Source of the DNA: a virus
Lineage: Duplodnaviria; Caudoviricetes
IMG/VR virus record: IMGVR_UViG_3300027608_000010
Direction: 5' to 3' (one strand)
DNA length: 64,000 bases
The translations under genes were made by a program, and so were the position numbers. Numbering within the stretch: position 1 is the stretch's first letter; the number at the start of each line of letters is the position of its first letter. This document shows positions 1-58,515 of the stretch, one piece after another. The notes beneath the pieces are model-generated. The model had not been told where the DNA came from. It was given only the letters and a program-made list of their open reading frames with translations, and ran no database searches.

Positions 1-408
1 TACAATCGTAGCATTAACGAGGATACGTTACGTTGGTGGAGTACTCAAAGCGAGGCTGCACAAGAAGAAGCTATGGGAGATTCTGGACGTGAATCATTGT
101 CTGACTGCATGGAGAAACTATATAAGTTTTGTTGGAACCGTCGTGCTGTATGGTCGCACGGTGCACCCTTTGACGTTGTTGTCATGGAGTCAGCACTAAG
201 ACAAACTTCAACTAGACCTAATCCAATACCCTGGGCTTTCTATACAGTAAGAGATACACGAACATTATTTGACATTACTGGAGTAAGTCTTAAAGACGGT
301 GGACACGTGACTACCCACAAAGCGGTAGAAGATGCTGAACGTCAGGCTATTGTCGTACAGAAAGCGTATATGAAATTAATTAAAGCAGGATTAGTGCCAC
401 CTAAATGA
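1..408 (+). CDS. 3'-5' DEDD-family exonuclease (Rv2179c/epsilon-like), 5'-truncated by window edge
   Basis: Frame 1 is open from base 1 (YNRSINEDTLRWWSTQ...). Motifs WSHGAPFD, RDTRTL and HKAVEDA match ExoII/ExoIII-type motifs. Confidence 0.75.
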   Translation, partial: YNRSINEDTLRWWSTQSEAAQEEAMGDSGRESLSDCMEKLYKFCWNRRAVWSHGAPFDVVVMESALRQTSTRPNPIPWAFYTVRDTRTLFDITGVSLKDGGHVTTHKAVEDAERQAIVVQKAYMKLIKAGLVPPK

Positions 409-998
409 AGTTTCAATCAGATATTGATATTGACTTTGGTAACAGAGATAGTATATTAAAACATATCTCACATATACCTGCGGCAATGCGTAGAGCTAAT
501 CCTATTCGTAAACATGCAACTGGTATCTATGTGACAGAGATTCCATATGATGCACTACTTGACATGGCTAACATGGACTATAGTGAAGCAGAAAGTCGCG
601 GGTATCTTAAGTTAGACTTTTTGAACGTGCATGTATATGATAAGGTTCGTGATGAACAGCATTTGATTGAATTGATGCGTGAACCTAATTGGGACAAATT
701 AAATGATAAAGTATTTGTGGGACAACTGATTCACTTGAGTAACCATTATCATAGTATGCAAAAGATGCAAGATCCTATTAATAGCATACCTAGACTTGCT
801 ATGATGTTAGCAATAATTAGACCTGCTAAAAAGCATTTAATTGGATTACCTTGGAAAGAAGTTGCAGAAACAGTGTGGGAGAAGAATATAGATGGATACA
901 GTTTTAAGAAAAGTCATGCAATTTCCTACTCATGGCTTGTTGCAGTGCATATGAATCTATTAGAAGAATTAGGACATCCTCTTGACGAGGGTAATTGA
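405..998 (+). CDS. dnaE: DNA polymerase III alpha (DnaE)-like catalytic C-terminal fragment
   Basis: SDIDIDF (DnaE PDxDxDF), HATGIYV (HAAGVVI), YLKLDFLNV (KxDFLGL), LAIIRPA (ALxRPG) and GYSFKKSHAISY (GYxFNKSHAxAY), all in the right order within 197 aa. Confidence 0.8.
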   Translation: MKFQSDIDIDFGNRDSILKHISHIPAAMRRANPIRKHATGIYVTEIPYDALLDMANMDYSEAESRGYLKLDFLNVHVYDKVRDEQHLIELMREPNWDKLNDKVFVGQLIHLSNHYHSMQKMQDPINSIPRLAMMLAIIRPAKKHLIGLPWKEVAETVWEKNIDGYSFKKSHAISYSWLVAVHMNLLEELGHPLDEGN

Positions 999-1349
999 TT
1001 TTCTTTTTGATTTTCTTTTGGCCAATTCTAATATGCTACATATCGGACCATGAACTACGGTGAGACTTTTGTTGTTGAATGTTCTTATATATGGCTTAAA
1101 CATCATCCATTCTTCTTTTAAAAACATATTGATGGGTACTAAACGATTACTCTCCCACCACCATACATCACCTAATTCTAAAAATTTCTCCCTTAGTAAC
1201 TGGTCTACTATTGCCCCGTAATCATAGATAGTTGTAACCACATCATCTCTATTTTGAACAATTCCAACATAATCTTGTCCTGCATAGGAACATATGGTTA
1301 TAAAGGGGTGATTTTTAGTTAGTTTGTTAAAGAATTCGTTTTGAATCAT
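969..1349 (-). CDS. hypothetical phage protein
   Basis: ORF track gives 969..1379. ATG at 1349 is preferred because a GATAAATA late motif lies on the minus strand at 1370-1377. Confidence 0.65.
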   Translation of the reverse strand: MIQNEFFNKLTKNHPFITICSYAGQDYVGIVQNRDDVVTTIYDYGAIVDQLLREKFLELGDVWWWESNRLVPINMFLKEEWMMFKPYIRTFNNKSLTVVHGPICSILELAKRKSKRKSITLVKRMS

Positions 1350-1435
1350 TATTTTAGTGTTCTCGGATTTATTTATCAATTTTATTTGCCCAATGTATTT
1401 AAATTTATTAATAAATATAGTAAAGGACCAACATT

Positions 1436-2237: not shown

Positions 2238-3212
2238 ATGTTTGATATACTCTCAATAATACCCGGTCGTAAGAAACAAACAAGCGGTGGTTGGACAAGT
2301 TTCAACGCTATTTGTTGTTCCCATCGCGGGCATAGACCTGATGATAAATTTCGTGGTGGCATCAAATTTGATGGACAAACGAATTGGGTATACCATTGCT
2401 TCAATTGTAGTTATAGTTGCAGTTTTACATTGGGTAGAGTTATCAACGACAAAGCAAGAAAATTCTTACTATGGTGCGGTGTTGATATAGAACAGATTCA
2501 ACTTTGGAGTCTTGAAAGTTTACGCAACAAAGACTTTTTAGATTTCAGTTATCGTAAAAAGGTTCGTGAAACACTTTCATTTAAGACTAGAGAATTACCC
2601 GATGGTGAATTGTTAGATGGCAATAATCCTAATCATAGTGTATTCTTACAATATCTACGAAATAGAAAGATTGATGAAAAACTATTACCCTTCATTGTAA
2701 CACCCAATGATAAGGGTAGACATTCTAATCGTATTGTTATCCCATATACGTATAAGGGAAAGACTGTAGGACACACTAGTAGATTTTTAGATAACAGAAT
2801 ACCTAAGTATATCAACGACCAAGAAGCCGGGTATGTATTTGGATATGACTTTCAGAGACCAGAATGGCAAGCATGTATTCTAGTTGAGGGTATCTTTGAT
2901 GCAATGAGTATACATGGTTGTGCTTTAACACACAATACAATATCAACTGAACAAGCACAGTTATTAGCGCAACTAAACAAGAAAATCATTGTTGTACCTG
3001 ATCGTGATGCTACCGGACTTGAGATATGTGACAAAGCATTAGAGTTTGGGTATAGTGTCAGCTTACCTGATTGGGATAGTTCAGTTAAAGATGTAAATGA
3101 CGCAGTAGTAAAATACGGTAGACTACCTGCGTTACTAAGTATATTAGAAAATGCAACAATGAGTAAGATAAAAATAGAAATGCAGAGGCGTAAAATTGCA
3201 AAAGGATTATAA
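2238..3212 (+). CDS. DNA primase (T4 gp61-like, Zn finger + TOPRIM)
   Basis: N-terminal Cys/His zinc ribbon (AICCSH...YHCFNC). TOPRIM motifs VEGIFDAM and VVPDRDATG. Confidence 0.9.
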   Translation: MFDILSIIPGRKKQTSGGWTSFNAICCSHRGHRPDDKFRGGIKFDGQTNWVYHCFNCSYSCSFTLGRVINDKARKFLLWCGVDIEQIQLWSLESLRNKDFLDFSYRKKVRETLSFKTRELPDGELLDGNNPNHSVFLQYLRNRKIDEKLLPFIVTPNDKGRHSNRIVIPYTYKGKTVGHTSRFLDNRIPKYINDQEAGYVFGYDFQRPEWQACILVEGIFDAMSIHGCALTHNTISTEQAQLLAQLNKKIIVVPDRDATGLEICDKALEFGYSVSLPDWDSSVKDVNDAVVKYGRLPALLSILENATMSKIKIEMQRRKIAKGL

Positions 3213-4608
3213 TGTAGAGATTCAGCGGCTCTTTTTAGAGATGATGCTAACAAATGCAGAACTCTATACTAGGGTAATGAATATTATGAATGCACAGAAC
3301 TTTGACAAGGGATTAAGACCTGTGGCAGAGTTTATGGTAGAATATAGTGAGAAATATAGTCTGTTACCTGATATTAAACAGATTTCAGCAACAACAGGAA
3401 CTAACCTAAGTCTAGTCGAAGACTTTGGTGAGAAACATACTGAATGGTTCTTAGAAGAATTTGAATCATTTACTAAACGACAAGAATTAGAACGAGCAAT
3501 TCTTAAAGCAGCCGATTTACTTGAGAAGGGTGAATTCGGACCAGTTGAGAAACTAATCAAGGACGCGGTACAGATTAGTTTGCAACGAGATATGGGTACA
3601 GATTACTTTGCTAATCCCAAAGAACGATTACATAGATATTTCAATGCAGGTGGACAGCAAAGCACAGGCTGGCCGCAACTTGATAGATTGTTATATGGTG
3701 GCTTCAGTCGAGGTGAATTGAATATCTTTGCAGGTGGTTCAGGATCAGGTAAGAGTTTGGTCATGATGAACATCGCATTGAATTGGTTACAAATGGGATT
3801 GAGTGGTGTTTATGTATCGTTAGAACTATCAGAAGAAATGACCTCATTGCGTACTGATGCGATGTTGACAATGATGAGTACCAGAGATATTCGTAGAGAT
3901 ATTGACGGCACTGAACTTAAAGTTAGAATAGCATCTAAGAAAGCAGGTGAATATCGTGTTAAAGGAATGCCTGCACAAAGTAATGTTAACGATATTCGTT
4001 CATACTTAAAAGAAGTACAAATCCAAACTGGAATCAAAGTTGACTTTGTTATGATTGACTATCTTGACTTGGTTATGCCAGTATCAGTTAAAGTCAATCC
4101 TAACGACCAGTTTATTAAAGACAAGTATGTCAGTGAAGAATTACGTAATTTGTCAAAAGAACTAGGTGTATTAATGGTCACTGCAAGTCAATTGAATCGT
4201 AGTGCGGTTGAAGAAATAGAATACGATCATAGTCATATTGCAGGTGGTATCAGTAAGATTAACACAGCAGATAACGTGTTTGGTATCTTTACGAGTCGCA
4301 GTATGAAAGAACGCGGAAAGTATGGAATTCAATGTATGAAAAGTCGTAATTCTACAGGAGTAGGTCAAAAAATTGACCTAGATTATAACATTGAAACTAT
4401 GCGTATTACGGATGAAGACCCGGAAGGATATTCGGATCAGCAAGCAAAATATAGGCCAGCTCCGAGTCCCAACGATATTATGAATCAAGTAAAGCCCCAA
4501 TCTACTGTAGTGGGGGAAAATATACATCTCCCGGAAGAGACAAAGCGTGTAGTAGCAGATGTGCGAGGGGCGACACTTAAATCTTTACTTAAGAATCTCC
4601 AAAATTGA
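3196..4608 (+). CDS. replicative DnaB/T4 gp41-like helicase
   Basis: Walker A GGSGSGKS, Walker B VMIDYLD, VTASQLNR motif; adjacent to primase. Confidence 0.92.
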   Translation: MQKDYNVEIQRLFLEMMLTNAELYTRVMNIMNAQNFDKGLRPVAEFMVEYSEKYSLLPDIKQISATTGTNLSLVEDFGEKHTEWFLEEFESFTKRQELERAILKAADLLEKGEFGPVEKLIKDAVQISLQRDMGTDYFANPKERLHRYFNAGGQQSTGWPQLDRLLYGGFSRGELNIFAGGSGSGKSLVMMNIALNWLQMGLSGVYVSLELSEEMTSLRTDAMLTMMSTRDIRRDIDGTELKVRIASKKAGEYRVKGMPAQSNVNDIRSYLKEVQIQTGIKVDFVMIDYLDLVMPVSVKVNPNDQFIKDKYVSEELRNLSKELGVLMVTASQLNRSAVEEIEYDHSHIAGGISKINTADNVFGIFTSRSMKERGKYGIQCMKSRNSTGVGQKIDLDYNIETMRITDEDPEGYSDQQAKYRPAPSPNDIMNQVKPQSTVVGENIHLPEETKRVVADVRGATLKSLLKNLQN

Positions 4609-39741: not shown

Positions 39742-40248
39742 ATGCAAATTGATATATACGGTCAGCAAATTTTAGATGAAATGGACTTATGCAGTGCCTT
39801 TCTATCTGACCCCAACATAAAAATCAAAAACGCATTAGTCTCTGATGATATCTATTTTGATAAAGATTTAGAGATAGAAAATATACCCACATTCAAGAAA
39901 TATGTCAAGCAATCTATAACTAAGGAAGAGTTTGACAATCAATTACAACGTAATTGGTTTATTCCAGAAGAATACAATCAATTAGATATAGCCAAACATG
40001 TACTAGACTTATGTCAAACTGACGCAGAATTACAACGAGTTGGGCAAGAGTTAATATTATATCAGCAACGAGATTTGTTTCAATTATTGCGTTATTGTAA
40101 GTATCTAGTTGATACTATGAGAGCAAATAAAGTTGTTTGGGGAGTAGGTCGTGGTAGTAGTGTATCCAGTTATGTTCTGTATTTGATGGGGATACACAGA
40201 ATAAATAGTTTGCATTATGACTTGTCCATTGACGAGTTCTTAAAATAA
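39742..40248 (+). CDS. dnaE: DNA polymerase III alpha (DnaE)-like N-terminal palm fragment
   Basis: RVGQELILY...VVWGVGRGSSVSSYVLYLMGIHRINSLHYDLSIDEFLK aligns with DnaE GPGRGSxxGSLVAYxLGITxxDPLxYxLLFERFL. Confidence 0.8.
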   Translation: MQIDIYGQQILDEMDLCSAFLSDPNIKIKNALVSDDIYFDKDLEIENIPTFKKYVKQSITKEEFDNQLQRNWFIPEEYNQLDIAKHVLDLCQTDAELQRVGQELILYQQRDLFQLLRYCKYLVDTMRANKVVWGVGRGSSVSSYVLYLMGIHRINSLHYDLSIDEFLK

Positions 40249-40258
40249 GGAGAAAATT

Positions 40259-40627
40259 ATGCATAGATCAGCATTAGGTAAAACAGTAGATATGTCTTCA
40301 TTGGTTTCAAAAAATGAAAAAGTACGTGCCGTGGGTAACATGAACGTAAATGCTAGAGGTGATATTATCGACAGTCACGGCAGAGTGGTACAGGATAATA
40401 CACAACGAGTTAAAAGACAATATAGTAATACTGTTAATAAACCATCAATTCAAGAAGATGTACAACCAGAAGTTGTAACTCCTGTAGTTACTCCTCCACC
40501 GGTAGTAGAAGTAATAGCACCTGACTTGAATCCAGAAGAACAAAAAATGTTTGAAGAATTTGATGATTACGAAGAAGTTGAAGAAATCAAGCAAACCGAA
40601 ACAGAGAAACCGAAAGCAAAGAAATGA
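40259..40627 (+). CDS. hypothetical protein
   Basis: 122 aa with AGGAG RBS; AVGNMNVNARGD motif. Confidence 0.65.
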   Translation: MHRSALGKTVDMSSLVSKNEKVRAVGNMNVNARGDIIDSHGRVVQDNTQRVKRQYSNTVNKPSIQEDVQPEVVTPVVTPPPVVEVIAPDLNPEEQKMFEEFDDYEEVEEIKQTETEKPKAKK

Positions 40628-40992
40628 AATTAGCGTTTGAACCACATAAGTTTAGTAAAGAGAGTTTTAAACCCGTTGGAAAACATATCATTGTAAGTGA
40701 TATGGAATTTGATGAGCGAATCACGACAGGTGGAATCGTGTTGTTATCTGATAATCGTAAGGATCATGGTATCAGACCACGCTGGGCGCAAGTATATGCA
40801 TTGGGTTCTGACTTCAATGATGATGAGATACAAGTGGGTAAATGGATTTGTATTAGTCATGGAAGATGGACACGGGGCATTGATGTTGAAGATGAAACGG
40901 GAGAAAAGACGTTGCGTAGAGTCGATGAAAATGATATACTACTAGTATCAGACGAACCCGTCTATGATTTAACAATTGGTGAAAAAGGATAA
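40624..40992 (+). CDS. groES: co-chaperonin GroES/Cpn10-like
   Basis: FKPVGKHIIV, TTGGIVL, QVYALG and VDENDIL motifs. Confidence 0.8.
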   Translation: MKLAFEPHKFSKESFKPVGKHIIVSDMEFDERITTGGIVLLSDNRKDHGIRPRWAQVYALGSDFNDDEIQVGKWICISHGRWTRGIDVEDETGEKTLRRVDENDILLVSDEPVYDLTIGEKG

Positions 40993-40994
40993 AA

Positions 40995-41324
40995 ATGAAA
41001 TGGTTAGATAATTGGTTCTTAAAGAAAGTACGTTGGGCTTGGGATCATCAAGAAGCAGACGAAGGACCCAATCTTGTTATGACTGGTAGTAAAAGACAAA
41101 ACATCGGTCGTGCGATTTCAACAAGACATGATTCTTCTGGTGAATTAGAAAGTCGTGGGGTATCATTCAATCTATATTCTGCTAACGGCGGGCATGTAGT
41201 TGAACTGCGTAACTATGATGATAAAGCAGACAGAATAAAAAACTCATTACATATCATACCACATGACAAAGACTTGGGTGAAGCACTTAACCACATTATC
41301 ACTTACGAAGCATTAAAACGATGA
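40995..41324 (+). CDS. hypothetical protein
   Basis: 109 aa ORF within the operon. Confidence 0.6.
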   Translation: MKWLDNWFLKKVRWAWDHQEADEGPNLVMTGSKRQNIGRAISTRHDSSGELESRGVSFNLYSANGGHVVELRNYDDKADRIKNSLHIIPHDKDLGEALNHIITYEALKR

Positions 41325-42244
41325 AAAATCAACTCTGGGTAGAAAAATATAGACCTCATTCTGTAGAAGATTATGTCTTTGTAGATGACAGACAGAAAGA
41401 GCAAGTTAACGGTTGGATAGAAACTGAAAGCATCCCTCATCTATTGTTAAGTGGCGAACCCGGTACAGGTAAGACTACACTTGCAAAAGTTCTTATACAA
41501 GAATTAGGTGTAGAAGAATATGATGTATTGGAAATCAATGCATCACGTGAGAATAGTGTTGACGTAGTGCGAAACAAAATCATTGGCTTTGTGCAAACAA
41601 TGCCATTTGGTAAATTCAAAGTCGTATTATTAGATGAGGCAGATTATCTAACTCCAGCAGGTCAGGCAGCATTGCGTAATGATATGGAAGCATATCACAT
41701 GACTGCACGATTTATTCTAACTTGTAACTATGAACACAGAATTATCCCTGCACTTAAAAGCAGATGTCATGAATTTAGAATAACTAAAACGGATAAGACA
41801 GAATTTACTGCACGTGCCGCAACAGTATTGGTTGCTGAGAACATAGACTTTGATTTAGATATACTAGATAGCTATGTCAGTGCTACATATCCTGACTTGC
41901 GTAAGTGTTTGAATCAGATTCAAGTAAATAGTAGTACGGGTAAATTGTTACCTCCAGTAGATGCTGGCAAAGGTGAAGATGAATTGCTTTTTGAAGCAAC
42001 ACAATTGTTTAAAGCAGGTAAAATTTTAGAAGGTCGTCAGCAATTACTACAACATTTAAGTTTATATCCTAGTAGATTAGAAGATATCTATCGTTGGCTG
42101 TATAATAATTTAGATTTGTGGGGTAATTCAAACGAGAAGCGTGATGCTAGTATCATTATCATTCGTAATGGTCTAGCGAATCTATCAATGGTTGGCATCC
42201 CTGAGATCAGTCTTGCAGCCACAATGGTAGAATTAACAAGTTGA
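41321..42244 (+). CDS. sliding clamp loader AAA+ subunit (RFC/T4 gp44-like)
   Basis: LWVEKYRP, GEPGTGKTT, LEINASRE, VLLDEADYLT, LKSRC and YPDLRK motifs. Confidence 0.93.
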   Translation: MKNQLWVEKYRPHSVEDYVFVDDRQKEQVNGWIETESIPHLLLSGEPGTGKTTLAKVLIQELGVEEYDVLEINASRENSVDVVRNKIIGFVQTMPFGKFKVVLLDEADYLTPAGQAALRNDMEAYHMTARFILTCNYEHRIIPALKSRCHEFRITKTDKTEFTARAATVLVAENIDFDLDILDSYVSATYPDLRKCLNQIQVNSSTGKLLPPVDAGKGEDELLFEATQLFKAGKILEGRQQLLQHLSLYPSRLEDIYRWLYNNLDLWGNSNEKRDASIIIIRNGLANLSMVGIPEISLAATMVELTS

Positions 42245-46176: not shown

Positions 46177-48459
46177 TTGCACTCACCGGAAATCGAATCA
46201 ATTATTGAAAAAGCAGTTGATTTAGCAAAACAACGCAACCATCAATATTGCACAGTAGAACATCTACTATTAGCATTAATTTCTTATGCACCATTTCAGA
46301 AATGTATAGGCAGCTTTGGTATTGATGCAGATACTATGAGTAAAGAAGTAATTACATATTTAGATAATTTAAAATATATCGAATTATCAGTATCTGAAGG
46401 ACAAGAAATTCAGCCACGCAAAACTAATAGCTTAGAACGTGTAATGAATCGTAGCGTTACTCAAGTATTATTTACCGGTCGTAAAGTTGTAACAACTATT
46501 GACTTGTATCTTAGTATTATGGCTGAAGGCAATAGTCATGCACAGTATTTCTTATTGAAACATGGTTTTGTTAAGAATGAATTTGTTCCTTTTTGGCAAA
46601 AACATTACAAAGGCACACAAGCTGATGTTAAACTAACAGACGAACAAGCAGATAATATCCTAGAAGAATACACTATCAATTTAACACAACTGGCTAAGTT
46701 GCAGAAACTAGAGCCTGTGATTGGTCGTAGTAAAGAAGTTGATGACATTATCAATGTATTAGCTAAACGATTCAAGTCAAATGTATTGATGGTAGGTGAT
46801 CCTGGTGTTGGTAAAACTGCAATTGCAGAAGGTCTAGCACAAATGATTGTCAATGATGAAGTCCCTGAATTCTTAAAAGACCATGAACTTTACAGTTTAG
46901 AGATCGGTAGTCTATTAGCAGGTAGTAAGTATCGCGGTGACTTTGAAGAAAAAGTTAAAGCAGTACTTGATGCACTGACTGTTAAGAAAGATGCAATTCT
47001 GTTCATTGACGAAGCACATACAATGCGTGGCGCCGGTGGTGCAACAAATGGTGCAGTTGATTTTGCTAACATGATTAAACCTGCAATTACTAAGGGTACA
47101 TTAAAAGTTATTGCAAGTACAACTTGGGAAGAGTACTACGAATCATTTGAAAAGGACCGCGCATTGATGCGAAGGTTCTATCGTGTGAGTATTGATGAAC
47201 CAAGTCGTGAATCTACAGTTAGTATTCTTAAAGGTCTAAGTGTACGATTGAATGACTTCCACAGTGTGGAGATTACAGATGAAGCGATTGAAGCCGCAGT
47301 TGAAGGTGCAACACGATACATTCAGGATCGTAAGAATCCAGACAAGTCTATTGATTTGTTAGATGCCGCTTGTGCTAAACAACGAGTAGCAGAGAACAAG
47401 GGCGCTATCATTACTAAAGAATTAGTGTTTGATCAGATTGAAAAATACACCGGAGTTCCTGCTGATAAATTAACTGATGATAACTCAGAACGTATTATTA
47501 ACCTTGAGTCTAATGTAAAATCAAAACTATATGGACAAGAAGAAACAGTTAATAAGGTACTTGAACGTGTATATGTTAGTTTTGCTGGTATCGGCAATCA
47601 AACTAAACCACAAGCGAGTTTCTTATTCTTAGGCCCAACCGGTACAGGTAAAACTGAATTAGCTAAATTATTGTCTAAGAACCTTGACATGAAACTACTC
47701 AAGTACGATATGTCAGAGTATGGTGAAAAGTTTTCGGTATCAAGTTTGATTGGCGCGCCCCCGGGCTATGTTGGCTTTGGTGAGGGATCACTAGGTGGTG
47801 GACGACTGATTAATGACTTAAGCAAGAACCCACATTCAATTCTATTATTTGACGAAGTTGAAAAGGCTCACCCAGATATCTTTAATATCTTCTTGCAATT
47901 GCTTGATGAAGGTCGTGTTACCGGTAGCAATGGTAAAGAAGTCAATGCTAAAAACTGTATTATCATTATGACTAGTAACTTAGGTAGTGGTGACAGTGAA
48001 CGAAATGTAATTGGTTTTGGTAGTCAAGAACGTAGCGGGGAAGATGACAAAGCATTAAAAGAATTCTTTAAGCCAGAATTCAGAAATCGAATTGACTTGG
48101 TATGTAAGTTTGGTAAACTAGATATGTTGGCAATCAAAAAAATTGTTATTAAATTTGCTGATGACTTGAAGAAATCTCTCAGAGAGGCACATAATATTAC
48201 ACTACACTTGAGCGAACCAGTAGTTGAGTATCTAGCAGAAAAGGGTTATGATAATAAAATGGGAGCCCGCCCACTAGCAAGAAAGATTGATGAACTAATT
48301 CGGGTACCTCTGAGCAAGAAACTCTTGTTTGAGCGTATCAAAAATAGTACAATCAATGCTAACTTAGAGAACGGAGAAATTGTTTTTGATGTTCAACAAA
48401 AATTAATAGCAGAAGTAGGTGAAGATGGCATTATTAAAGTTACAACAGACACGCAGTGA
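46177..48459 (+). CDS. clpA: ClpA-type AAA+ unfoldase
   Basis: Clp N domain; two AAA+ modules (GDPGVGKT/IDEAH and GPTGTGKT/FDEVEKAH); IGF loop; no M-domain. Confidence 0.88.
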   Translation: MHSPEIESIIEKAVDLAKQRNHQYCTVEHLLLALISYAPFQKCIGSFGIDADTMSKEVITYLDNLKYIELSVSEGQEIQPRKTNSLERVMNRSVTQVLFTGRKVVTTIDLYLSIMAEGNSHAQYFLLKHGFVKNEFVPFWQKHYKGTQADVKLTDEQADNILEEYTINLTQLAKLQKLEPVIGRSKEVDDIINVLAKRFKSNVLMVGDPGVGKTAIAEGLAQMIVNDEVPEFLKDHELYSLEIGSLLAGSKYRGDFEEKVKAVLDALTVKKDAILFIDEAHTMRGAGGATNGAVDFANMIKPAITKGTLKVIASTTWEEYYESFEKDRALMRRFYRVSIDEPSRESTVSILKGLSVRLNDFHSVEITDEAIEAAVEGATRYIQDRKNPDKSIDLLDAACAKQRVAENKGAIITKELVFDQIEKYTGVPADKLTDDNSERIINLESNVKSKLYGQEETVNKVLERVYVSFAGIGNQTKPQASFLFLGPTGTGKTELAKLLSKNLDMKLLKYDMSEYGEKFSVSSLIGAPPGYVGFGEGSLGGGRLINDLSKNPHSILLFDEVEKAHPDIFNIFLQLLDEGRVTGSNGKEVNAKNCIIIMTSNLGSGDSERNVIGFGSQERSGEDDKALKEFFKPEFRNRIDLVCKFGKLDMLAIKKIVIKFADDLKKSLREAHNITLHLSEPVVEYLAEKGYDNKMGARPLARKIDELIRVPLSKKLLFERIKNSTINANLENGEIVFDVQQKLIAEVGEDGIIKVTTDTQ

Positions 48460-55900: not shown

Positions 55901-55999
55901 TTCTTACGTGGCATTCTATCACAAGATATATATGACGGCAATGATGGTGGTGCAACCATAACACAATTTGATAAAATATTAGACGGAGGCCAATCATAA
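52937..55999 (+). CDS. modular tail fibre protein
   Basis: 1020 aa; SPAALNTLNELATALGN fibre motif; about 8 W-x-F-x3-G-x-L-x-x-P repeats; C-terminal DGG motifs. Confidence 0.8.
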   Translation: MSKIWIKPQQVDITQDPGLSPPVVPKEDLGLGFVDANSTFTTSTPSTPLTNTVNNIYITRGPRGRDGQVQFNEDGSYTGDPGLLYEPNSDTLTTGTLDVNQLNANRANLGSINYLTILGGNNRDVLKTNGSGVITWASAFPSDVGNSGKFLMTNGISQQWAHPSYTNLVDVPSNIATQSYVGNAIANLVDSSPAALNTLNELATALGNNANYATDITNILANKANVTYVDNKLANITWANLTGRPTIPDAQINSDWTETNVASKAFIQNKPTLGNISNINISGSSSQVFYGNGIFASLPAEVNLGNLTFNGNNLSSTSNVVIITTNGADGLTQLENKHINGDTYVWLDEGNVKIEADGNVWTFANSGNLMLPAGGDILDSTGNSVLGVSGANTGNITFSGNEIGSTGNFINITSTTGYVQLENLDSTNGSTYIYLQEGNVFVENNEGTWTFHNTGSLLFPETSNVEFAIVINDTLGEMSISTDSGNIAIWPENSKWLFGADGNLTLPANTFSVNYANGTQVSLGGGGGANTGNITFSDTTMASTNGNVKIGFSPSASPAVEFTFTDNGNLVLPQGTILSETANSTTITPPNALAGQGLVVRLTGVQGIVSDHPGGFTDGDTITLTVTPDYGSAQVTGTLDYTFTGATSVQLGRALTGTLTFTNEVSKPISWTIPVSSTMTTFTVTISNASGFTITSVDNTLTLSTTGSTEDHHIHLIAGDPSITDIYLGDDDQYVKIEKNGGNVVIGTDTNNKQWTFDTNGALTFPGGETFENGQITATANGQAMLADNALNNFIWVDSNGAYIETDDGTENTWTFGDDGNLSMPGNTVVSTPDNTSLRLRTSNNEYGSTSIEFVSDINGPHPYTSKVEVDGDGVKVHNSGDTVVWSFSGGTFNLPNDSTGNGVIYSNVANAQLYTDRTGNAQVSIRSKGIAGDKTWAFKDNGEVQFPDNTLQTTAYRNRPLTNLNLDGGSASVVFEIDMAFVDGGGSFLRGILSQDIYDGNDGGATITQFDKILDGGQS

Positions 56000-58515
56000 T
56001 GGCAAATAGAATACAAATAAGACGAGACAGTGAAGAAAACTGGGTTGATGCTGACCCAGTATTAGCTGACGGAGAACTAGGATTAAACTACGATAATAAT
56101 CAAATCAAGATTGGTGATGGGACAAACACTTGGACTAGCTTATCTTATAGTGGTTCTAGTACAGGTAATGTTACATTCAGTGACCAAGTTATAGTAGGTA
56201 CCGGCGACATTGATGGTGGTGGTAGCGGATTATATTTGTCTCCGGGCGCTAACAGCACAGCTAATCTACAATATCTCAGAGTGCGTGGTGGAGATGACAG
56301 TGGTCACATTCATTTGGACACAGGCAACAACACAATATATGACCAATTCTTCGGCAATGATAACAAGTATCTTAAATTAGAAGCTGGCGACACCGGTAAT
56401 ATAGTAATAAGCACAGACGGAACCTATGAATGGCAATTTGGCAGCAATGGCAATTTAACACTGCCACAAGGTACTACTATAAGTGAAGCAACAAATATTG
56501 TTACTGTTACATTAGACCAGTTAACTGCTATCTCAGCCTGGACTGGAACTTTGGTTTTTACCAAAGTCAGTGACACATTATATCAAGCATTACCGAGTGG
56601 TCCAACTATGGAACTGGTTGTTGGTATTTGGAGACTTAGGTCTAATACTGCTACTTACTATGACTCAACAGACCTTATAACTTGGGGAACTGTTGCCGGT
56701 TCGTTGCCTGCGCCGGTTGGTACTACAGAGATATTGGAAACAATGAACCTAACAGTGGGTAGTAATGTTTGGACCTTTGGCGACGATGGCAACTTAACAC
56801 TACCAGGCAATGCTTTTGCAGTTAACTATGCTAACGGTACACAAGTATCAATCGGCGGTGGTGGTAATGCTAACACAGGCAATATTACATTTGACGATAA
56901 TATTGTTATTGGCACAGGCGATGAATTTGGCAGTACCGGATTGTATTTGGCCCCTGGAAATGCTAGTATTGCTAATAGTGCAGTACAATATTTAAGAGTG
57001 CGTGGAGGTGATGTTGCCACACACATTCACCTTGATACAGGCAACAACGCTTATTTTGACCAATACTTTGGTGATGACGACAAGTATGTAAAACTGGCTA
57101 ATACCGGCAATGTCGTAATCGGTACTGATGATGCCAATGGAAACTCAGCACAATGGACATTTGGCACAGATGGTAACTTAACTACACCAAGTAATTTAGT
57201 GATTGGCACAGGAGCTGGTAGTGGTTCAAGGATATTTCAATATGACGATGGTCTAGAAATTGTAGGAGAAGGTGCTAACTCCGTTGTACTAATGGGTTGG
57301 ACAGCAAATATAAGCGCACCCGATAGTGTTGCAACAATAGCAATGAATTACCCAAGTGGTGGCGAAGGTAATATATTGATTGCTGTAGGTAATAACGCAA
57401 CCACTGTACACAGCTGGCTTTTTGGCAATGATGGTGACTTAAAATTACCTGCAGGCGGTGATATTGTAGACAGTACTGGTACTAGTGTATTAGGCGGTGG
57501 CGCGGGTGGCGGTATAGCATTAACAGATTTAAGTATTGGTACTGATGGTACACCAACTGGTGGTGGTAATATTTCATATGCCAATTCAACTGGTGTATTT
57601 ACATATACTCCGCCGGTAATACCTGATGTTAGTGGATTTGCATTAACAAGTGATATACCTGATGTTAGTGGGTTCGTAACAGGCACGCCTTGGACGAGTG
57701 CAGGTTATTTAACAACTATCACAAATATATTCAATCAAGACTTGAATACAACTAACAATGTTACATTTAGTAGTGTAATCACTAGCAATGTACAAGCAAC
57801 TAACGGCTCACCCGCTGTGGCAAGTCCAGTGGCTGTCGGTGGTGCCGGCTCTTTGTTAACAATCAGTGCAGGTGATGGCGGCATTGCGGCTACCGGTGTT
57901 AATGCTGGGGCAGGTGGTAATCTAACAATCACTGCAGGTGATGCTGGTTCTGATATAGGTAACCCAAGTTGGGGAGAGATAGGCGGTACTCTTGTTATAA
58001 GAGGTGGAAATTCCTCAAGACCTTATCATGGTAGTGATGTTCAAATTCACAGCGGTAATGCTGTAGCATCACCCGGTGCAATATCTTTATACACTGGCAC
58101 AAATCAATGGACATTTGGCAAAACTGGTAACTTAACATTACCAGTTGGTGGCAACATTTTAGATAGTACAGGTACTAGTGTATTGTTCAGTGGTGACTAT
58201 ACTGACTTGACCAACAAACCAACTATATTAGCTGAACCTGCGTTCAGTGTTCAAACAACAGACTTCAATGCAACAGCAGGTTCTAGATATGGTTTTGATA
58301 CAACAACAGGAGTAGTAACTGCAACATTACCAGCAAGCCCAGCAACAGGTGATGCAATTTATTTTGCAGATGCAAGTGGTACAACGTCAACTAATAATTT
58401 CATAATTGCTAGAAACAGTCAAACAATTATGGGTTCAGCAAGTAATATGACAGTTAATGTCAACGACCAAAGTTTTGGGTTGTTCTATAATGGAACAACT
58501 TGGAGAGTTTATTGA
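55999..58515 (+). CDS. tail fibre protein with Mtd-N-like N-terminus
   Basis: MANRIQIRRD...LADGELG...IKIGDG start; duplicated internal module; C-terminal TLPASPATGD domain. Confidence 0.8.
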   Translation: MANRIQIRRDSEENWVDADPVLADGELGLNYDNNQIKIGDGTNTWTSLSYSGSSTGNVTFSDQVIVGTGDIDGGGSGLYLSPGANSTANLQYLRVRGGDDSGHIHLDTGNNTIYDQFFGNDNKYLKLEAGDTGNIVISTDGTYEWQFGSNGNLTLPQGTTISEATNIVTVTLDQLTAISAWTGTLVFTKVSDTLYQALPSGPTMELVVGIWRLRSNTATYYDSTDLITWGTVAGSLPAPVGTTEILETMNLTVGSNVWTFGDDGNLTLPGNAFAVNYANGTQVSIGGGGNANTGNITFDDNIVIGTGDEFGSTGLYLAPGNASIANSAVQYLRVRGGDVATHIHLDTGNNAYFDQYFGDDDKYVKLANTGNVVIGTDDANGNSAQWTFGTDGNLTTPSNLVIGTGAGSGSRIFQYDDGLEIVGEGANSVVLMGWTANISAPDSVATIAMNYPSGGEGNILIAVGNNATTVHSWLFGNDGDLKLPAGGDIVDSTGTSVLGGGAGGGIALTDLSIGTDGTPTGGGNISYANSTGVFTYTPPVIPDVSGFALTSDIPDVSGFVTGTPWTSAGYLTTITNIFNQDLNTTNNVTFSSVITSNVQATNGSPAVASPVAVGGAGSLLTISAGDGGIAATGVNAGAGGNLTITAGDAGSDIGNPSWGEIGGTLVIRGGNSSRPYHGSDVQIHSGNAVASPGAISLYTGTNQWTFGKTGNLTLPVGGNILDSTGTSVLFSGDYTDLTNKPTILAEPAFSVQTTDFNATAGSRYGFDTTTGVVTATLPASPATGDAIYFADASGTTSTNNFIIARNSQTIMGSASNMTVNVNDQSFGLFYNGTTWRVY

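Follow-up and report, generated by a model that had tools for sequence, protein, structure and literature searches.

Two distant genes of an uncultured lake phage encode the putative halves of a split, minimal DNA polymerase III alpha

We analyzed a 64,000-nucleotide stretch of DNA (the window) from IMG/VR virus record IMGVR_UViG_3300027608_000010, derived from an uncultured giant phage of a lake. Two of its genes, separated by 39.3 kb, encode proteins of 197 and 168 aa that we call the C-half and the N-half of a split, minimal polymerase III (Pol III) alpha (Table 1). An initial annotation of the DNA had noted MKFQS-DIDIDF, HATG, KLDFL, RP and GYSFKKSHA in the longer open reading frame (ORF) and GRGSS...YDLSIDEFLK in the shorter, and both ORFs are present where it had placed them: the C-half starts with MKFQSDIDIDF and carries HATG at residue 37, KLDFL at 69, IRPAKK at 138 and FKKSHA at 167, and the N-half carries GVGRGSS at 134–140 and terminates in YDLSIDEFLK. 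The ATG of the C-half shares the tetranucleotide ATGA with the stop of the upstream exonuclease gene, and the plus strand upstream of the N-half showed no sigma-70-like promoter. Both proteins matched phage-specific PHROGs labeled DNA polymerase, and the window copies are 45–49% identical to cultured members of the family. Residues 97–167 of the N-half match positions 24–94 of the Pol III alpha NTPase domain model (PF07733, E 9e-9). The C-half by itself had no match in a Pfam search, and because single-sequence searches with it against Pfam and the PDB yielded nothing meaningful, family profiles were required.

Table 1. Positions of the two polymerase halves and of other genes discussed in the text
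Feature	Position in window	Strand	Remarks
DEDDh exonuclease, Rv2179c-like, 3' part	1–408	+	PF16473
C-half, split minimal Pol III alpha	405–998	+	197 aa; phrog_11778, E 5e-52
Small antisense gene	969–1379	-	phrog_11637; likely start M11, giving 972–1349, ~126 aa
T4-type primase, gp61-like	2238–3212	+	conserved neighbor of C-half locus
Replicative helicase, gp41-like	3196–4608	+	conserved neighbor of C-half locus
N-half, split minimal Pol III alpha	39742–40248	+	168 aa; PF07733; phrog_11127, E 6e-40
Variable N-terminal part of N-half	39742–39951	+	residues 1–70
GroES-like gene	40624–40992		near N-half locus
RFC/gp44-like clamp loader	41321–42244	+	conserved neighbor of N-half locus
ClpB/Hsp104-like double AAA+ protein	46177–48459	+	760 aa; Clp_N, AAA, AAA_2, ClpB_D2-small
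Mtd_N protein	55999–58515	+	838 aa; N-terminal Mtd_N (major tropism determinant)

T4-type replisome genes neighbor both loci. PA5oct, RaK2, Atu_ph07 and SCTP-2 share with the window the gene order C-half, small antisense gene, structural-protein gene, primase and helicase. PA5oct also shares the arrangement around the other half (N-half, phrog_14844 gene, GroES-like gene, clamp loader), and the metagenomic relative L071 does so as far as the GroES-like gene. The antisense gene overlaps the 3' end of the C-half by 30 nt and encodes a basic C-terminal tail. It follows the C-half in the majority of the relatives that we inspected, PA5oct, RaK2 and lake-clade phages among them, with no match in L078 or L090, and within the lake clade it is better conserved (81–94% identity) than the C-half (63–89%). 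Searches with it produced no family and no Atlas lead, and AF2 gave no confident fold (pLDDT 55). The window holds tail genes as well as a ClpB/Hsp104-like gene, and the product with the N-terminal Mtd_N domain is probably a tail fiber or receptor-binding protein. A family B polymerase gene is absent from the window; two complete relatives, G002 and G003 (359.6 and 367.1 kb), each encode such a polymerase of 916–929 aa together with one N-half and one C-half. This fits the suggestion in the initial annotation that the split enzyme may not be the replicase. PHP, finger and HhH domains (PF17657, PF14579) were not found in these two genomes by searches in which the positive controls worked.

Profiles built from 18 diverse N-halves (A1) and 56 diverse C-halves (A2) related both proteins to bacterial DnaE. 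Searched against the PDB, the N-half profile matched Pol III alpha chains only, with residues 96–167 corresponding to E. coli 321–392. The C-half profile likewise matched Pol III alpha only, at a whole-sequence E value of 1.2e-3 with individually weak blocks. HMMER placed these blocks collinearly with DnaE: 3–20 with 399–418, 53–80 with 538–565, 97–139 with 598–641 and 150–177 with 739–767. Alignment with hhalign to E. coli DnaE paired N-half 95–168 with 320–393 (E 9e-7) and C-half 35–142 with 509–642 (E 2e-4). The catalytic aspartates that the initial annotation had named, D401, D403 and D555, are retained as C-half D6, D8 and D71, the first two by the HMMER alignment.

The last residue of the N-half is the equivalent of E. 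coli N393, and five phage residues precede D6 where DnaE has seven (394–400). As just ~7 DnaE residues separate the halves, they abut, in keeping with the near-exact abutment first proposed. Neither half has a Pfam intein domain, and both align with DnaE right to the junction, which leaves no space for intein fragments and agrees with the earlier reading that intein ends are missing. It follows that the halves would have to act as a non-covalent dimer. Elsewhere the alignment is marked by two large deletions: E. coli 406–508 is replaced by ~24 phage residues, deleting the thumb (433–510), and 643–738 by ~8–10, deleting the index finger. The C-half ends near E. coli 773, and neither half matches a PHP domain in Pfam. 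The absent parts are therefore PHP, thumb, index finger, distal (ring and little) fingers, HhH/clamp-binding, OB and tau-binding regions; PHP, most fingers, HhH and OB had been listed as missing at the outset, and the thumb, unlisted then, is gone too.

The retained segments include the positions at which the family varies least. Among the 56 diverse C-halves, D6, D8, D10, K69, D71, W96, R139 and P140 are invariant and H37, G40, K168 and H171 nearly so; across N-halves, W72, G134–S140, E165 and F166 are invariant. The N-half corresponds to the rigid N-terminal palm, preceded by its variable residues 1–70. Its R137-G138-S139, inside the invariant GVGRGSS, is equivalent to E. coli R362-G363-S364, the GS nucleotide-binding motif. 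The C-half contains the metal-binding strand with D6, D8 and D10, the small palm with K69 and D71 (E. coli K553 and D555), R139-P140 (R639-P640), G164 (G753) and a Y165/F167/K169/H171 motif (Y754/F756/K758/H760).

The residues of E. coli Pol III that come within 4 Å of dGTP or of the template base opposite it are given in a 2026 cryo-EM preprint (10.64898/2026.06.29.735100), which allowed a comparison contact by contact. R362-G363-S364, D401/D403, Y754/F756/N757/H760, R639-P640-G641 and G753 are kept, with K553 nearby, and R709, K714 and K715 are lost with the index finger. Based on alignments and models, the two halves together hold every palm and middle-finger residue that Pol III alpha uses for catalysis, dNTP binding and template contact. 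According to the same work, R362A and K553A abolish activity, and R390 touches dGTP, with R390A lowering catalytic efficiency 27-fold (10.64898/2026.06.29.735100). The R390 position is occupied in the phage family by an invariant Glu (N-half E165), a charge reversal. The preprint further describes palm residues 271–393 as rigid on DNA binding and the next part, with D401/D403, as mobile, and identifies a His beside the deoxyribose and an Arg bonding O3' (10.64898/2026.06.29.735100). In the bacterial enzyme, most duplex contacts and closure over the dNTP fall to the thumb and index finger. The phage split, at 393|394, coincides with the rigid/mobile palm boundary of the E. coli enzyme. The retained His and O3'-bonding Arg argue for dNTPs as substrates, and the loss of the closing finger together with the exchange of R390 for Glu leaves room for another transferase activity.

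Searches by tblastn matched the C-half to 96 phage records and the N-half to 90, or to 92 at E ≤ 1; the set includes entries below 100 kb (phiKp_21, for one, has 85.7 kb) and a few records with the C-half only. The records with halves come from the same groups of jumbo phages of 284–490 kb, including RaK2, 121Q, GAP32, PA5oct, Atu_ph07, SCTP-2, XacN1 and others. All ten large IMG/VR contigs picked for carrying the N-half contain exactly one C-half; the nearest record, a 41.8-kb fragment (G001), does not contain the C-half. The two genes are distant in every case: the interval is 31–44 kb in RaK2, 121Q, PA5oct and the relatives G002–G004, and it exceeds 100 kb in Atu_ph07 and SCTP-2. Co-occurrence, which the initial annotation had made a test of its proposal, thus holds in ~92–96 phage records and in 10/10 large contigs. 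So does the absence of relaxed selection: dN/dS between the window and its nearest relatives (Nei-Gojobori) is 0.075 for the C-half and 0.07–0.09 for the N-half, and both halves are under strong purifying selection. Clustering of environmental proteins at 90% identity gave at least 7,948 clusters for one half and 7,031 for the other, and clustering at 50% identity gave 354 family representatives. The termini of the halves are identical in thousands of independent metagenomic protein clusters, and the junction is therefore not an assembly artifact.

A search without a length filter recovered a rare form in which the two halves are naturally joined, exactly at the junction between them. This protein, P0283, has 375 aa, of which the first 180 correspond to the N-half and the last 185 to the C-half, with a 10-residue linker. 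Two more fusion clusters (P0393 and P0394) have 376 aa and are 78–81% identical. The fusions lie on four contigs (L082–L085) from four samples, at the C-half locus, and on the one contig of sufficient length they are followed by a small antisense gene and a structural-protein gene, as at that locus in split genomes; this antisense gene resembles that of the window weakly (E 0.002). Two of the four contigs have a DNA methylase gene (PF00145) directly upstream of the fusion. The PF07733 match of the fusion runs unbroken over the junction (residues 97–207 to HMM 12–121, E 4.8e-16). With conserved termini and a natural protein that bridges the junction, the worry that the junction is artifactual is settled.

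Fusions and separate halves were aligned together in a balanced subset (A4), in which the last 10 residues of the N-half rows are locally misplaced. A maximum likelihood tree grouped the three fusions in a single tip clade amid split forms, with a stand-alone C-half as its sister (support 99/90). The N-half most like that of the fusion, at 47% identity, is the split gene of L071, which sits at the canonical N-half locus. Because the fusions nest among split forms, fusion is probably secondary, as read from a tree that lacks an outgroup and whose root is not fixed.

The fusion model (pLDDT 87.9, pTM 0.85, from a 45-row alignment; residues 1–70 weaker) shows no added domain at the positions of the deleted thumb and index finger. 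Foldseek against the PDB returned 19 matches with E values from 8.5e-8 to 9e-4, all DnaE or PolC, and the next stood above 0.8. VIA-align superposed the model on 5lew (Z 21.9, rmsd 5.1 Å, 344 aligned), 3e0d (Z 20.7, rmsd 4.3 Å, 334 aligned) and the PolC structure 3f2c (Z 18.2, rmsd 3.3 Å, 291 aligned); CCA-adding and Cid1-type transferases came next, at Z ≤ 3.4, and no X-family polymerase appeared among the matches from either program. As modeled, the palm and proximal fingers have the fold of a C-family polymerase core. The structural alignments also run into the PHP region of DnaE over N-half residues 1–70 (chain ranges start at 6–51), where model confidence is low. No sequence evidence for a PHP remnant was found in this segment; judging from the model, it could be one, and if it is, the phage enzyme would reflect reduction from a full-length enzyme and not a primitive state. 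Two other proteins, P0406 (540 aa) and P0407 (551 aa, on a 16-kb NCBI contig), consist of PHP and palm only and end at PF07733 position 233 of 260; they may be other truncated or split DnaE proteins, or gene-call fragments.

Co-folding the window's own halves with family alignments, a further check named in the initial annotation, gave a score of 0.91, whereas the best of three controls scored 0.02. Among solved complexes 58 of 80, and among mismatched pairs 2 of 110, reach this mark, counts that apply roughly here because our own alignments were used. Three runs share 97% of contacts, and the partner pLDDT is 90. In the contacts of least predicted error, the GS-motif strand (W133-G134) lies alongside the DxD strand (D10-F11), and the invariant NWF strand of the N-half pairs with two C-half strands, so that the predicted dimer is interwoven into a single sheet. 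Because the halves belong to a domain that has often been solved as a single chain, the score may partly reflect this likeness. The prediction supports binding between N-half and C-half.

Our main reading, to which we assign a probability of roughly 0.7, is that the halves are obligate subunits of a split minimal Pol III alpha of group 2.2 (RaK2/PA5oct-like) jumbo phages, whose activity we infer. Co-occurrence, selection, the predicted dimer and the natural fusion all support the two-subunit, nearly palm-only enzyme first proposed from the window. The N-half would supply the rigid part of the palm, whose R-G-S motif would grip the incoming nucleotide by its sugar and phosphates. From the C-half would come the strand bearing both metal-binding aspartates, a small palm that contributes the third aspartate and the essential lysine, and finger residues in contact with the templating base and stacked on the incoming base. 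In the models, strands of both proteins pair to form one Pol-beta-like nucleotidyltransferase sheet. The dimer would be an active, dNTP-using, template-directed DNA polymerase, and, with thumb, index finger, clamp-binding and editing domains all missing, it is expected to be distributive, non-proofreading and error-prone. An enzyme of this kind would suit the synthesis of short patches, as in primer extension, gap filling or repair, alongside the family B replicase rather than bulk replication, and we offer this cellular role as a guess.

Other Pol-beta-fold enzymes nucleotidylate substrates or make nucleotide signals, and the dimer might likewise be a nucleotidyltransferase that copies no template, acting in tailing or terminal transfer, substrate nucleotidylation or nucleotide signaling. 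The deletion of the duplex-gripping, dNTP-closing thumb and index finger and the invariant charge reversal that replaces R390 count against a polymerase and for such an enzyme, and the sole other similar folds, at Z ≤ 3.4, are template-independent transferases of the CCA-adding and Cid1 types. We nonetheless regard it as unlikely: both genes are placed among replisome genes, and the template contacts R639-P640 and G753 (G164), the stacking Y754 (Y165) and H760 (H171) are kept family-wide, a pattern of template and dNTP contacts that is hard to explain without template and dNTP. That the halves are decaying or inactive dnaE leftovers, proteins with unrelated separate functions, or an assembly artifact is very improbable. 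Each half alone is an incomplete catalytic domain, and the C-half finds no Pfam match, as a leftover might, but this reading is at odds with the dN/dS values of 0.07–0.09, catalytic residues invariant in 56 diverse sequences, more than 7,000 clusters per half with the same termini, strict co-occurrence and the occurrence of fusions. Within the split Pol III alpha reading, we hold tentatively, at slightly less than even odds, that the 365-aa two-chain core and the 375-aa fusion are working template-directed polymerases with a Pol X-like role in short-patch synthesis or primer extension, in which E165 marks an altered pocket. If so, it would be the smallest member of the C family by a wide margin, and one that works with neither thumb nor index finger nor PHP domain.

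An extension of the main reading concerns the exonuclease gene at the start of the window. In the lake-phage clade the enzyme might have three parts, with the DEDDh exonuclease as an epsilon-like proofreader: its stop overlaps the C-half start in the window (ATGA), and it lies upstream of the C-half in eight of nine close metagenomic relatives. Five relatives, however, have a gap of ~400–1,300 nt between the two genes, space for at least one further gene; in the nearest relative the exonuclease was not found within 1.5 kb of the C-half; and it is not beside the C-half in PA5oct, RaK2, Atu_ph07 or SCTP-2. The closest cultured relatives of the exonuclease, moreover, come from small phages of 35–70 kb that are not among the records matching the polymerase halves. 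The adjacency is confined to the lake-phage clade, and a three-part enzyme seems to us distinctly doubtful. We also considered the PA5oct gene upstream of the C-half as a counterpart of the exonuclease and rejected it, as it is not homologous to the window's gene.

Small, distributive, non-proofreading polymerases with a Pol-beta-type palm are known in Pol beta and in Pol X of African swine fever virus (ASFV), and in the latter case a large virus keeps a short-patch polymerase beside its replicase. The phage enzyme possibly works analogously, although it is not an X-family member and resembles Pol-beta-fold transferases only distantly (Z ≤ 3.4). A dnaE gene in two distant pieces is likewise familiar from cyanobacteria, whose DnaE-n and DnaE-c are joined by intein protein trans-splicing; the phage halves differ in having no intein fragments and in the site of the split.

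With bacterial DnaE and PolC (PF07733; 2hnh, 3e0d, 5lew, 3f2b) the phage proteins share the Pol-beta-like palm, the GS motif, the three carboxylates, K553, R639-P640 and the Y754–H760 helix-loop-helix. They comprise 365 aa in two chains, whereas the bacterial proteins have ~1,160 in one, and they differ further in lacking PHP, thumb, index, ring and little fingers, clamp-binding, OB and tau-binding parts and in the replacement of R390 by Glu. Judged by alignment and model, the GS motif, carboxylates with K553, finger contacts and fold place the pair with the C-family catalytic core; by sequence, the PHP, thumb/index finger and distal/HhH/OB/tau parts that distinguish a full-length replicative Pol III alpha are wanting. 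If active, the pair would be the minimal catalytic unit of a bacterial-type replicative polymerase and would reveal what the thumb, index finger and PHP domains contribute; the fusion is a handy single-chain protein for biochemistry.

The initial annotation had suspected that fragmented DnaE genes might already be annotated in jumbo phages, and this is so: several GenBank records label the pieces Pol III alpha, and Iyer et al. (2021; Viruses 13:63; PMC7824862) described a split minimal Pol III alpha in group 2.2 jumbo phages. They distinguished an NTP-binding N part and a Mg- and template-binding C part that accompany a family B polymerase, suggested a role in one-strand synthesis or repair, and took the enzyme to be split in every case and to model the ancestral one (PMC7824862). 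Our literature search found no experimental study of this enzyme, no usable statement on the two half genes in the PA5oct omics paper and nothing on the split enzyme in the PaBG or Sharanji papers. The window's feature belongs to this published family, already known from sequence analysis only. The architecture is identical: distant genes encoding two separate proteins, a genome otherwise devoid of Pol III domains, a family B polymerase (in the complete relatives) and a T4-like replisome, with gp61, gp41 and gp44 homologs in the window. It differs in its uncultured source and in the fused lineage found here. To the published description we add the natural fusion, the residue map, the coincidence of the split with the hinge of the E. 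coli palm, the invariant Glu in place of R390 and the environmental size of the family, whose more than 7,000 clusters at 90% identity per half make it very abundant among environmental phages. Fusions nested within split forms bear on the argument of Iyer et al. for an ancestral enzyme.
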